Positions 48,201 to 54,200 of a DNA stretch of 64,000 nt are shown here, one piece after another. How positions within the stretch are numbered: the stretch's first letter is position 1; every line of letters starts with the position of its first letter. The stretch lies in assembly GCF_044324785.1 (NCBI RefSeq), contig NZ_CP172128.1. The stretch is one strand, 5' to 3'. The DNA is from Escherichia coli. GTDB taxonomy: Bacteria > Pseudomonadota > Gammaproteobacteria > Enterobacterales > Enterobacteriaceae. Made by a program: the position numbers.

Positions 48201-51200
48201 TTGGGTAATGCTGCTCTTATTGTTCTGGCAGCCATGGTTCCGGTTGTACTGGTGAAACCATGGGATTCGATGACATTTATTTTTATGGGGGCCGTGTGTG
48301 TTTCTTTTGCAGTCATTCTGTTTTGGCTGGTTTATATAGTTTGTTTGTATATAGGAACGCTTGTAAAGAATATTTTTATAAGGATTTTTGCTTTTTCTAT
48401 TTGGGCCCTTTCTGCTGAGGGGGCAATTATTTATAACATGATAAAGATATTATCATAGAAAAGCTGTTTATATATTGGCTCTATGTAAAAAGAATGGTAC
48501 CACTGCCAGAGTCCCCGTCGTTATTTTTATGCGTTGGGGCCATGAATGTTTATTTGGCATCCCTTATCTCGCCCATCAGCAGGCGGATATGCAGCCAGGT
48601 GTCATGATCCAGAACAGGTGATGGTGTTACCATGCAAGCACAGTGCCCGATGGCGAGCGTATCAAGGAAGCGTTTTGCATCGTTGGCACTTTCATATTCA
48701 CCAGTATGGATCAACATCCACCTTTGCCCCAACGCTGATTCGGTGTGAATTGGTTGCGAGAATGCGATTGTGTAAACGTCTTCAATTGTAACGATACGAT
48801 TATTATCCGCAGTGGCTGCATGGGAGGATAAGTGTTTCATAAAGGGTCTCATAGCGTTAATTTTGATCAAAAATTATTTGTTCAGGAGGAGGATATGAAA
48901 ATACTGTTCGCTTTTGTCATGAACTGGCTGTTTGTTAACGGACAAATCATGACCCGTTCATCAATGTTTGCGGGTAGCTCGCCTGGTGTGGGGACGCGTT
49001 CACCCCGCTGAGCAGCCTGGGCCAGTGCGCGCAGCAACAATACGCTGGCGTGAGATATTGCCAGTTCCCGGGTTTCAGCACGGCTTTCAAGGTCGAAATC
49101 GTGCAGTGTCACAATGAACACTCCGTTTCTGTTTCTGACAGTTGCAGGGTAGGGAACAAAATAAGGGGAAATTTTGCTGGTCTGTTTACGCCTTGCATCG
49201 AGTTTACTGACCAGGTGATATGCCCGGAGGTGTGTGTACCGTTTCAACATGTTCAGTGAGCGGTGACCGGAAATGGCTGCAATCTCCATAACGTTCAGTG
49301 TGCCGAGCTCGAACAGACGGCTGATGGCCTCATGGCGTAGATCGTGAAAATGCAGATTTTCTATTTTCAGATCCAGAAGAGCGGTACGCCAGGCGCTTTT
49401 GAAACCGGACGAGGTGTAATTGAACACATTGCCGTTTATCTGTTGTGGCAGAATTTGCAGGTAGTTACGTGCTTTCCGGGAGAGTGGTACGTCGCGTGGT
49501 GAGCCATTTTTCGTTTCAGGAAGATGCGCCACGCCGTGCTGCAAATCGATGTGTTCCCAGCGTAATGAGAGAATTTCTCCCTGGCGCATTGCTGTTTCCA
49601 GAGCCAGATGGAAGATAACGTAGAGCTGCGGATTTTTGTCCCTGAAATAGCGGGAAAGGCGGCGTTCTTCACCAGAAGTCAGTCGGCGGTCGCGGCCATT
49701 ACTGATTTTCGGTTTTCGGACCAGTTCAACAGGATTCATACGGCATGTTCCCCATTCCACACGGGCGATATTGAATAATGATGATAAAAGGGCAAGTTCA
49801 AGACGGACGGTATTTCCGGTGATTTGACGCCCTGTTCGTGGGTTAATTTGAGCTAAACGCTGATCCCGGTAACCGGCGATATCAATGGTAGTGATTTCAT
49901 CCATATAGCGCTCGGCCATAGGGTGACGTTTAATCACATTGACGCGATAAAACTCCTGCAGATGACCTTTTTTATGGACGGAAACGGTTTTCAAGTATTT
50001 GTCCAGCGCCCGGTTGAGAGTCATTTTGCGAATTTTGATTTTTCGAAACATATCTGCCTTCCACGATAAAAACAGGGAAGGTAGGAATAGTGAAACGGAA
50101 ATGCAATATCGCCGTGCCAATCCGGTTCGTGGAAAAATGCAGGAAAAGGCGATATTGAAATCGTCAAAGTAACAGCATCAAAACTCCGCTGGCCTGGTGC
50201 TACTGCCACCTGCCCAATGGGTAAGAAGGTGATCGGGGGTGGTGCAGAATGCAGCTCTGGAATTGGCTTTATCTGGCTTGTCCGTTCAATACCTGTAAAC
50301 AATAATGCCTGGTATGGCTTTTGCGATACGACAGAACACATCATTGGAAAAATAACTGTACATGCCATTTGCCAATGACAAAGTGATTTACTGGCAAACC
50401 ACAATGTAACTACATTTCCCCGTCAGATCGTTCCTGTTTGTACCGCCGTGAAAATTGTATTCATCGTAGTAACCACACTTCACAATCCTGTTCGAATCAT
50501 ATGTCGCAACAGAACCTGCGAAGTAATTTGGCTTCCAGCCATGCGGGTTTTCAGCATTGCTGACGCTCCAGGTACACTGGCTGGCAGAAAAACCAGACGG
50601 CAAAGGTAGTCGTTCTCCATTTGCGATTTTTCCTGTCAGAACAGTGCTACCTGATACCCTAATCCACGAACCGGATTGGCACGGAGGCCAGTGCCAATCC
50701 GGTTCGTGGAAGGGTAACAAAGAAAAGGAACATTTCACTGTTTACGGAACGAGTGGATGTGGACATACAGTGTCCTATGCAGTGTGTCCGAGTGGTAGTA
50801 CTTTGGTTTCAGGCGGATATCAATTAACCGCCTGGTCGCAGGACAACCGTAACCCGTTCAACTCACCGGACTCAACTTATCCCGACTGGGCGAACAATCG
50901 CTGGATTGTTGGTGGAACAGGGACCATCACAAGCTGTTTTCGCTCTGTAGCGTTATGCGCCAGATGATTTCTGGCACATTGTTTCAACTTCATTACGGTT
51001 TAGTTGAATGCGGTGCTACATCTGATATGCATAAACCGAGAACACCCCTGAGCCACAAGAGTAGTTTTGGGCCGGATAAGAGGTGATCTGATAAGTTGCG
51101 CCAGCAGGGACAGCAAAAGAGATGAATGCTGTCTTCCCATAAGATGGGTTATTACTCGCATTTGTGCTAATCAATGCCCCTGCAACGTATCCCTGCAATC

Positions 51201-54200
51201 TGGATGTGTTAGCACAATCTCCCCCGGCGGAACCACCATTCCCTCCAGAGGCGTAAACAAACAGCGTACCACTTCCCGTATTGCGACCAGTAAATGATCC
51301 TCTGTGTGATCCAAGATTACTGTAACTACCGTTAGAGGAACCGGAAGTTCTCCACACACCGGATTGGCACTGGCCTCCGTGCCAATCCGGTATCTGGACA
51401 ACGACAAAAATGAACTTCACTACCAGTACATACAATATCGGGAAAAATACTCGTAATCTGAGCATTGGCGTACATGCGTACTGCTCGTGGACATACCTTA
51501 ATGGCTCGCCTTTTGGTGGTTTTCAGCAGATATACGCCGACCAAAACAAGGTTTGGTATGTGAATAATTATGCGTGGGGAAATTATGAGTCCGGTGGCAC
51601 AATTACAGTGACATGCCTCAACCTTCCTGGTGCCGGAATCTAACCAAAAGGGCAACAGTAAGCATCGACGTGCTCTTCATCAACACCATCTCCGATGCCG
51701 TACATTCTTGTACCTGTCATGACGTACCCGGCAGGGCACTGAATCGGCTTGTAATAAATAGAACCTCCACTTCTGCCACCGATAAAATGTGCGGAGGTCG
51801 CTTCATACCATTTACAGGCAGAATAGTTCACTTTATTGCCTCCAACCCACACACCGGATTGGCACGAAAGTATTGCCCCTTTACTGTCGCGGCCTACAAG
51901 TCCGTCCGGTGAGCAGGAAGTACCTGCGGTGGCTGTTTTATCCAGCTGTAAATACTCACCCGTGGAAAGACGCCCCTCAGACCGGACAGTTCCACCACTG
52001 ACTTTTCCTCCTTTGAGCTCTCCTTCGGTTGTGATCCCTTTGTTGTTAACAGCACGTATCCATTGGCTGTCCGTCATGGTGAAACCGCCTCCGTGCGTCG
52101 TGTTCATCCACCCCTTGTTGTTTCTGGTGATAAGCCAGCCGTCTTCGCTGGTTATATCGCCTTTCACCGTGGCTTTCTGACCATTGAGGTTACCGGCGTT
52201 ATTGATGTCATTTCCGCTCATGTTGATAGCTGTGTGCATCTGGTTCAGCTCTGGTCTCCCCGGGACCTGGAAACGATACAACCTGTCGCTTTCCTGCAGA
52301 TCATCACCCGTCATGACGACGGCAATGTGACCTGCCGAACAGGTGAGTCCGTAATCCCCCGGTTTGTCTGTCCAGGCGCCGAATGCGCCGGTTGCTGTTC
52401 CGTTTTTACCAATATAACCACCCAGCCCGGGAAGCTGTCCTGCCACACTGCGCAGACCATCTTCTTTGATATTCTGCCCCCCTGTTGAGCAGGTCAGGGC
52501 TTCAAGACGTCCTGTAGTCTGGTTACGGCGGATACCCGTGATATAACTCTGCCCAAACGGAGAATGATTAAATCCCTGTTTCAGGTATCCCTTGCGAATC
52601 AAATCATCGGCTGTAAAGTTTGCCGGAAGGCTGCCGTTGTGCAGAGTGGCATTGTTATCGGCAATGTAATTTCTGGCTGCGGTATTGTAGGCATCTGCAT
52701 GAGAAGCAGCACTCTGGTAAAGCTGTTCATTCAGCCAGTTTTCTATTTCGGAATAAATCAGCGGCGTGGCGATACCAATCACTATCAGTCCCGCCAGTAT
52801 TTCAAGCAGAATAAAACCTTTGTCGTCATCGTGTCTGAACTTTTTCACGTGAATATCTCCGAAGTGCGGAAAACGGAATCAGGGAGGAGGGTTAGTGCAT
52901 ACAGTGATGCGCAGAGAAACGGGGCGAACGGCAGTGCCTGCTGATGTCTGTGACGGCAGAAGAGGAGGATAAACAGAAATGCCCCGGAAGCTGCGGCGGT
53001 GATTAGCAGCGGCGTGTGTTGTGGCTGTGTCCACATTGCAATTCCTGCTATCAGGAATACATCACCAAGGCCGAGTGCTTCTGTTCCTTTTGCCGTTATG
53101 AAAAACTGCCGTAGCAGGTATGTCATGCCGAACCAGAGTGATGCGTTGAGGAGGCTGTATGTGAGCTCCTCCAGGCTGTACCTGAACGCTGCCCCCAGAA
53201 CAATCAGTGAAAGCGTGAATATCCGGGGAAGCCGACAGACGGCGATGTCCGTCAGCGTCATTACAGTTAATAATCCCGTCAGAATGGAAAGGAATAACAG
53301 CCCCGTGGCTTCAACACCATATGCGCCGTTGAGGCTGACACTCACTATGGCCAGAAGGCAACACACGTACACCACCGGCCTGGGCGGCCGGGTGTCGTGT
53401 ACTGCTGACAGGTAGAGAGCGGCGGTGATGTATGCAAGATAAAGAATAACCGCCAGGATGATGATTATTATTGTCATGCTCAGTAATGCGCTCACCGTCA
53501 CCTCGTATTTATTAATATTGTCTGAAATACCGGTTGTGGATTTTTCGGGCATATATCATGCGCCGGGCTGTGTTATTTTTGCTGAAACCGGCGTTATAGC
53601 TGCCCAGGCATTCCCAGTTAACGCCGCAGCGTTGAAAATGGCGGGCCAGTATCCAGGCACCGGTATGAATATTCAGGCAGGGCTTTTTAAGCAGTTCATC
53701 CTTGTTTTTAATGACGCCCAGTTTTTTCAGTTCAGGAATATGCACTGAATTAATCTGCATTATTCCGTAATCCGTACTGATGATTTTTCCGGATTTGTTT
53801 TTATTGTGATTTATCGCAGTGGCGACCAGGCCGCTTTCCTGCTGTGCAATGGTTTTCAGAAGCTCAGGGGCAATCAGGTAACGTTTTCCGGCCTGAATAA
53901 AACAGGAATCGAGATGATTATTATTCATCACAGATGCGATTGATGTGTTACTGAATAAAAGCAGGACAGAGAGATATAACCATTTCATTATGATAATCCC
54001 GGCAGTGACAGCATCCTCTGGTATTTAAGGATGCTGTCCGGAAACATTAGCTGTTTGTTTCAAGGGTGATGTTATTTTTGTCGTTACTACATACTGTTAC
54101 GGGATCCACAGTAGCCGGGGCGGTATTCATGATTTTGGTAAACATGGATGAACTGCGCAGGCTGTTAATGAGTTCCACGCAATTTTCTTTCGGTACATTA

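Follow-up and report, generated by a model that had tools for sequence, protein, structure and literature searches.

How many different ends can a single conjugative plasmid give to the adhesin at the tip of its pilus, and is the switch that would choose between them still in working order? The question is raised by a locus within a stretch of 64,000 nucleotides from Escherichia coli (NCBI RefSeq assembly GCF_044324785.1, contig NZ_CP172128.1), the whole of which is here called the window, in which the 3' end of the adhesin gene pilV runs into an array of inverted repeats lying next to the recombinase gene rci. It had been proposed from the sequence alone that this array is a shufflon, in which three invertible segments could supply six alternative C-termini to PilV. 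The proposal holds good, on the strength of an intact Rci, a PilV that carries the Shufflon_N domain, six sfx sites and convergent tail frames, and the region is almost certainly an active multiple-inversion shufflon at the 3' end of pilV on a conjugative plasmid of IncK2/Z type. Shufflons as such have been known since 1986.

Sites, segments and recombinase

Searching the window for the pattern GTGCCAATCCGGTNNNTGG, with up to two mismatches allowed, returned six sites, all of them perfect, and the same six were found independently by a repeat finder. The level expected by chance, estimated from 100 dinucleotide-preserving shuffles of the window, was a mean of 0.05 sites, and no shuffle (0 of 100) gave six. 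The six 19-bp sfx sites alternate in orientation (+ - + - + -) and bound three segments between 50114 and 51865, exactly as had been described, and in every segment the right arms of the sites are contiguous with the segment interior and point inwards. A seventh, degenerate site such as marks the single-frame D segment in R64-like arrays was not found in the window at up to two mismatches. The parts of the array, together with the gene that lies just beyond it, are as follows (positions are those of the window).

48882-50051, minus strand: rci, shufflon-specific tyrosine recombinase, 389 aa, just beyond the shufflon
50114-50132, plus strand: sfx 1, repeat-e, triplet TCG, at the rci-proximal end of the shufflon
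50133-50663: segment S1, 531 bp, 'BD'-type, carrying tail T1 on the plus and T2 on the minus strand
50664-50682, minus strand: sfx 2, repeat-e
50683-50690: 8-bp spacer GGAGGCCA
50691-50709, plus strand: sfx 3, repeat-e
50710-51351: segment S2, 642 bp, carrying tail T3 on the plus and T4 on the minus strand
51352-51370, minus strand: sfx 4, repeat-g, triplet GTG
51371-51378: 8-bp spacer TGGCCTCC
51379-51397, plus strand: sfx 5, repeat-f, triplet ATC
51398-51846: segment S3, 449 bp, C-type, carrying tail T5 on the plus and T6 on the minus strand
51847-51865, minus strand: sfx 6, repeat-g, at the junction with the pilV constant region

The repeat types given here (repeat-e, tcg; repeat-f, atc; repeat-g, gtg) are those listed for IncK2 plasmids in 2017 by Seiffert et al. 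(PMC5350095), under whose names the order in the window, going from rci towards pilV, is e-e-e-g-f-g. All six sites consist of GTGCCAA followed by TCCGGTNNNTGG, and are accompanied by left arms of four different kinds. The left arm of sfx 1 (50102-50113) is tgcaatatcgcc and that of sfx 6 (51866-51877, minus strand) is ggcaatactttc, while at each spacer the 12-bp left arm of both adjoining sites is made up of the 8-bp spacer plus four nucleotides of the neighbouring site's core, so that the orientation of the spacer decides which left arm faces each segment end. According to PMC11852207, the left arms influence how often inversion occurs, in a manner still poorly understood. The two spacers are exact reverse complements of one another, as the original prediction had noted.

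The recombinase is intact. Rci matches Phage_integrase (PF00589, E 7e-25) and is 75% identical to the Rci of R64 over 373 aa (residues 6-372), in an alignment that covers the roughly 100 C-terminal residues beyond the region of the catalytic Tyr, i.e. the C-terminal extension by which Rci is distinguished from enzymes of the Cre/Xer type (PMC11852207). The catalytic Arg, the His-x-x-Arg, the His and the Tyr are held in the stretches AMRQGE (154), HDLRHE (236), GHRS (262) and KRYTH (270), respectively. The protein is 100% identical to the WP_021532708.1-type Rci encoded by six of the related loci with which the window was compared (L002, L003, L004, L006, L007 and L010, in a set labelled L001 to L017), and a scan of it against NCBIfam gave only sub-threshold matches of XerC/XerA type. 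All those defining features of an Rci/sfx shufflon of the R64 type that can be tested in a sequence are present here, the structure of the sites being as defined in PMC4176322, PMC9045228 and PMC11852207.

Six ends for one adhesin

pilV is read from the minus strand, a point that had been left implicit in the original prediction, and as now assembled the gene may be described thus:

51640-52848, minus strand: pilV, 402 aa, comprising a 328-aa constant region and a 74-aa C'-type tail

Two stretches of the constant region match Pfam Shufflon_N (PF04917; E 5e-61 and 2e-47), and a type IV prepilin signal, KG/FILLE, is present at the N-terminus; a scan of PilV against NCBIfam gave only a sub-threshold GspG match. 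The constant part ends at sfx 6 and continues in frame through the site into the minus-strand frame of S3, and an identical coding sequence of 1209 bp is annotated as pilV in L004, L005 and L006. In all six sites the repeat is read as G-TGC-CAA-TCC-GGT and encodes Cys-Gln-Ser-Gly, in agreement with the earlier claim for the coding direction. Open C-terminal frames in both orientations of every segment had also been claimed, and this too is what was found: all six tail frames are open over 74-117 codons, and the five that are at present unexpressed have no stop or frameshift. The computed ends of the stop codons match those given previously ('about 50380' having been given for 50378). In the following list the cysteine counts include the Cys encoded by the sfx repeat.

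T1, S1 plus strand: 87 aa, 5 Cys, stop ends at 50378; B-type, 56% identical to the R64 tail
T2, S1 minus strand: 97 aa, 5 Cys, stop ends at 50388; D'-type, 80% identical to the R64 tail
T3, S2 plus strand: 91 aa, 5 Cys, stop ends at 50967; without a clear R64 counterpart
T4, S2 minus strand: 117 aa, 3 Cys, stop ends at 51016; A-type, 81% identical to R64 A
T5, S3 plus strand: 87 aa, 3 Cys, stop ends at 51643; C-type, 83% identical to the R64 tail
T6, S3 minus strand: 74 aa, 5 Cys, stop ends at 51640; C'-type, 83% identical to the R64 tail, and currently expressed

The types were assigned by alignment to the seven tails of R64 and from the names given to the same frames in sister loci by the NCBI Prokaryotic Genome Annotation Pipeline, which has 'shufflon protein B' and 'shufflon protein D'' on the T1 and T2 frames in L009 and L001, and 'shufflon protein C' on the T5 frame in L006. 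A scan of the six isolated tails against NCBIfam gave no family match. For T3 the only match in R64 is a weak one, with the C-type tail (30% identity, E 6e-5). Plasmid L001 has a tail with which T3 shares 84% identity, and T3-like tails occur in 170 plasmid records, in some of which they are annotated as the expressed end of pilV. T4 is 97% identical at the protein level to a tail of the IncI2 plasmid pHNSHP45 (L012). It had further been suggested that the alternative ends differ sharply, and as regards sequence they do, BLASTP showing hardly any relationship among the tails (lowest E between two different tails, 3e-4); as regards length (74-117 aa) and cysteine content (3 or 5) the differences are only moderate.

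Where a suitably diverged homologue was available, i.e. for T2, T3 and T4, the ratio of nonsynonymous to synonymous substitution rates (dN/dS) could be computed for a silent tail, giving 0.05 for T2 and 0.15 for T4, both against pHNSHP45, and 0.07 for T3 against L001. As judged from such ratios the silent tails are under purifying selection, and this, together with the intact silent frames, indicates that every tail has periods of expression in which selection acts on it.

An observation on the cysteines may be added here. In all 34 of the 34 distinct tails found in the window and in L001-L017 the number of cysteines is either three or five, and hence always odd; the PilV constant region has three (C120, C170 and C312), so that every assembled PilV has an even total. 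This suggests that the Cys encoded by the repeat may take part in a disulfide.

In the mechanism that these parts would support, Rci (whose catalysis, like the receptor specificity of the tails, we infer from work on R64 and TP114) would be made from its gene just past the shufflon, bind the conserved right arm of the asymmetric sfx, and exchange strands within the 7-bp core between any pair of sites facing one another, inverting one, two or all three segments in a single event. Whichever segment end came to lie beside the pilV constant region would be read in frame through the repeat, and the pilus-tip adhesin would accordingly have at its end one of six unrelated domains, of type B, D', A, C or C' or of a type that R64 lacks. 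A donor population would then carry a mixture of adhesins recognising different structures on recipient surfaces, and could mate more broadly in liquid. In R64 the adhesins A, B', C and C' are reported to bind different disaccharides of the lipopolysaccharide core, while for TP114 deletion of rci locks the shufflon, and eight fixed variants differ in their recipient range in broth (PMC9045228). By homology at 56-83% identity, available for five of the tails, the six ends should confer different recipient preferences, and the present C'-type tail would be predicted to bind core structures of the Glc-alpha-1,2-Glc/Gal type. The repertoire (B, D', A, C and C', with one uncharacterised tail) would in that case help to set which recipients are reached in liquid or in the gut. 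Rci/sfx systems also serve as tools of synthetic biology for the shuffling of DNA.

Natural isomers and competing readings

A megablast search of PLSDB with the window matched 2,319 plasmid records, nearly all of them conjugative enterobacterial plasmids, and all 11 of the 11 matches that were fetched are typed as IncK2/Z, MOBP and MPF_I; on this evidence the element is an I-complex conjugative plasmid of the IncK2/Z group. Public sister plasmids were used as a natural experiment in place of population sequencing. Four sister records carry S1, S2 and S3 in a form 100% identical to that of the window (save for a single mismatch in S2 of pE16-3), and their PilV constant regions and Rci proteins are likewise both 100% identical to those of the window. 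Their arrangements, with that of the window, are these:

Window: S1+ S2+ S3+
pJD053-NDM-99K (L002): S1+ S3- S2+
pE16-3 (L003): S3- S2+ S1-
p1_020022 (L004): S1- S2- S3+
pNDM_M25631H (L014): S3+ S1+ S2+

What is found is thus not a single fixed arrangement together with a defective rci, but an intact gene, and sisters with an identical Rci standing in four other arrangements. The annotated pilV genes change to match, with coding sequences of 1338, 1248 and 1209 bp in sister plasmids and 1278 bp in L007 corresponding to fusion of the constant region to T4, T1, T6 and T2, respectively. A breadth-first search over inversions showed that all 192 possible states (48 segment arrangements, each with four spacer states) can be reached, and that the isomers observed lie two to five inversions away from the state seen in the window. 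The spacers vary also, both of them being GGAGGCCA in L014 and L006 and both being TGGCCTCC in L013 and L016. The 8-mer is found in either orientation at each junction, as inversion of several segments together predicts, and this supports the earlier view that the paired spacers reflect past inversions. On the comparative evidence of the five arrangements and of the flipped spacers, which require that more than one segment be inverted at once, segments invert both singly and in groups.

The isomers also help to locate the crossover. In every one of them the variable triplet and the inner flank move with their own segment (for example, GTG stays with the ...gttgga of T6, and ATC with the ...acaacg of T5), while the 12-base left arms keep fixed positions, tgcaatatcgcc beside rci and ggcaatactttc beside pilV, as do the spacers. 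Since the triplet travels and the left arm stays, strand exchange must take place inside GTGCCAATCCGGT. The crossover is thereby resolved to 13 bp, an interval that fits the published 7-bp core GTGCCAA (PMC4176322, PMC9045228, PMC5350095) without being narrowed down to it; the core sequence was not found in PMC11850598.

Some points must be set against the reading of this region as an active shufflon of known type. Loss of segments and decay of the switch do occur within the family, as judged from L005, L007 and L008 (NZ_CP080166.1), where the shufflons are reduced to one or two segments, and from the rci of L008, which is cut short or lacks an annotation (323 of its 389 aa align). The specificities are carried over from R64 tails sharing only 56-83% identity, and T3 has no characterised relative; we infer inversion in this particular host from its sister plasmids; and some of the 'isomers' could be artefacts of assembly, given that deposited shufflon arrangements can be an assembly consensus or mis-assembled (PMC5430464). 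That five concordant full-length arrangements, all with correct pilV frames, should every one be artefacts is unlikely. The reduced relatives, and the truncated rci of one of them, would lend themselves to the view that the locus is a frozen relic, its parts intact but no longer inverting (e.g. because rci is not expressed) and its PilV fixed as the C'-type. The window does indeed show one arrangement only, and a consensus scan of 48600-53000, which includes the surroundings of rci, gave three promoter-like and four terminator-like sites, no more than in shuffles. A relic is nevertheless very hard to reconcile with a full-length rci whose product is 100% identical to that of sisters in four other arrangements, or with six perfect sites and silent tails that have low dN/dS and neither stops nor frameshifts, and we consider it highly improbable.

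A different possibility is that the element is real and that the order and orientation recorded in the window are an assembly artefact, or the consensus of a mixed population, such that this arrangement may never have been in the majority. Mis-assembled shufflons and mixed populations within clones have been reported (PMC5430464), as they have by Brouwer 2015 in so far as that work is cited in PMC5350095, and no PLSDB record (0) has the exact arrangement of the window in one piece at 99% identity or more. However, the arrangement is internally consistent, with alternating sites, intact spacers and pilV in frame, and S1+ S2+ S3+ is found collinear and in one piece on three E. coli chromosomal records, H42 and H43 (both at 97.7%) and H47 (99.4%). 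An artefact is in our view unlikely, and it would in any case be compatible with an active shufflon, since the identity of the element would be unchanged. The general point has some practical weight, as shufflon regions are known to give rise to mis-assembly and to make resistance plasmids that are otherwise identical seem to differ. As to whether the locus might be no shufflon at all, six perfect 19-mers where 0.05 would be expected rule out chance inverted repeats. A switch of the serine-invertase (Hin/Gin/Cin/Min) type bears a superficial likeness only, in that C-termini are swapped by inversion; it is ruled out by an adjacent recombinase of the tyrosine family (PF00589), and by sites that have the Rci core and right arm and are not of Gix/hix type. 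No serine recombinase was found beside the invertible DNA, the only adjacent recombinase being the tyrosine enzyme. The chance that either of these accounts is correct seems to us negligible, and the locus is best regarded as an active Rci/sfx shufflon.

Cassettes, surroundings and known systems

The segments are conserved to a much greater degree than rci between one element and another, chromosomal islands and an IncI2 plasmid among them. S1-S3 are 99-100% identical in elements (L009, L013, L016 and L017) where rci is 83-92%, and pilU about 80%, identical in DNA, and in a chromosomal island (H47) the block of high identity found by megablast corresponds to 50113-51865 of the window, so that its limits coincide, give or take one base, with the outer ends of sfx 1 and sfx 6. 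The H47 block and the contrast in identity suggest that the whole cassette array may have been exchanged between elements. There are signs of the same thing on a smaller scale: the T4 half of S2 (51016-51351) is 97.6% identical in DNA to pHNSHP45, the rci of which is 82% identical, while the other tail halves are 67-83% identical to that plasmid or unmatched, and for the T3 half there is no match in IncI2. S2 thus has the appearance of a hybrid in which two half-cassettes are joined. Pairings of tails vary likewise, T3 being partnered with A in the window, a T3-like tail with a B'-like one in L001, and A with A' in both R64 and pHNSHP45. It is possible, and we would offer it tentatively as having somewhat less than an even chance of being right, that segments, and even half-segments with a single tail, circulate as a pool of cassettes among chromosomal pil islands and I-complex plasmids that belong to different incompatibility groups, perhaps through recombination at sfx. 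The alternative would be ordinary homologous recombination, or else strong conservation of the cassettes on a mosaic backbone. Exchange of cassettes, if true, bears on the evolution of plasmid host range.

Chromosomal copies deserve separate mention. The E. coli chromosomes NZ_CP087290.1 (L013), NZ_CP178690.1 (L016) and NZ_CP032265.1 (L017) each have a pil-operon island with a three-segment shufflon, in varied arrangements, along with rci, traE/traF-like genes and ardA; two of the three come from chickens. The search, which matched roughly 1,400 E. coli records, found 177 chromosomal places, and pil islands with these segments are mostly from poultry. Among other IncK2/Z plasmids, L001, L005, L006, L008 and L010 have a 709-bp A segment, not present in the window, in which the partner of the A tail is one of 129 aa; in two plasmids that carry it a product is annotated as 'phage tail protein', which may be the 129-aa tail.

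The shufflon sits at the end of a type IVb thin-pilus (pil) operon, in which an open reading frame (ORF) for a platform protein also lies upstream of pilV on the same strand, according to near-identical public loci. The genes next to pilV are the following.

52845-53552, minus strand: pilU-type A24 prepilin peptidase (ORF, and annotation of the near-identical L002 and L003)
53512-53988, minus strand: pilT-type lytic transglycosylase (ORF, and sister-locus annotations)
54047-54583, minus strand: pilS major type IV pilin (ORF, and sister-locus annotations)

Elsewhere in the window, Rfam finds two full-length matches to the sok antitoxin RNA, at 19473-19629 and 20193-20350 on the plus strand (123 and 120 bits, about 720 bp apart), which would mean a duplicated toxin-antitoxin locus of hok/sok type. 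Other Rfam matches, all above the gathering threshold, are to STAXI RNA (6366-6523, minus strand, 70 bits), to the ALIL pseudoknot (2702-2788, plus strand, 64 bits), which we take to be the frameshift signal of an IS3-family insertion sequence, and to AgrB antisense RNA (16194-16283, minus strand, 50 bits), presumably part of a dinQ-like type I toxin system.

It remains to compare the locus with known systems. In the Gin, Cin and Min switches of phages Mu and P1 and of plasmid p15B, inversion likewise swaps C-terminal receptor-binding ends onto a constant N-terminal part, and Min, like the shufflon, inverts several segments; these switches, in contrast, use a serine recombinase and different sites, and need an enhancer and Fis, and the locus has none of these features. 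With the prototype R64 (IncI1) the window has in common the core GTGCCAA, the right arm TCCGGTNNNTGG and 8-bp spacers between paired sites, besides an Rci that is 75% identical over its full length and five of six tails that match R64 B, D', A, C and C' at 56-83% identity. The left arm of R64 sfx101 (PMC4176322) is also identical to the pilV-proximal ggcaatactttc, though the two PilV constant regions share only about 41% identity. On the other hand, in R64 the segments number four and the sites seven, and one segment is directly flanked by two sites of like orientation, whereas the window has three two-frame segments and six sites; the variable triplets are TCG, GTG and ATC here as against ACC, CGG, ACT and ACG in R64; and tails A' and B' of R64 are absent from the window shufflon, while T3 lacks a clear R64 counterpart.

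Shufflons of IncI2 plasmids offer a further comparison. R721 has the same three-segment A / BD / C layout with two frames per segment (PMC5430464), TP114 also uses the triplets GTG, ATC and TCG (PMC9045228), and in pHNSHP45 the A-type tail is almost the same as in the window (97% identical in protein and 97.6% in DNA), but is partnered by A' where that of the window is partnered by T3. The backbone of these plasmids (R721, TP114 and pHNSHP45) differs from that of the window, being MPF_T and about 60 kb, and their PilV constant region and Rci are 57% and 89% identical in protein, respectively, to those of the window.

With the IncK2 and IncK2/Z shufflons (PMC5350095; L002, L003, L004 and L014) the agreement extends to repeat types, Rci, PilV constant region, S1-S3 and the flanking pil and tra genes. 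Some IncK2/Z members carry other or additional segments (709-bp, 516-bp, 504-bp), or fewer. Identical segments in several public plasmids are already annotated as 'shufflon system ... PilV', and the shufflon of the window is in this sense an already known one, a member of the described IncK2/Z group, in which it differs from its sisters only in how its segments and spacers are at present ordered and oriented.

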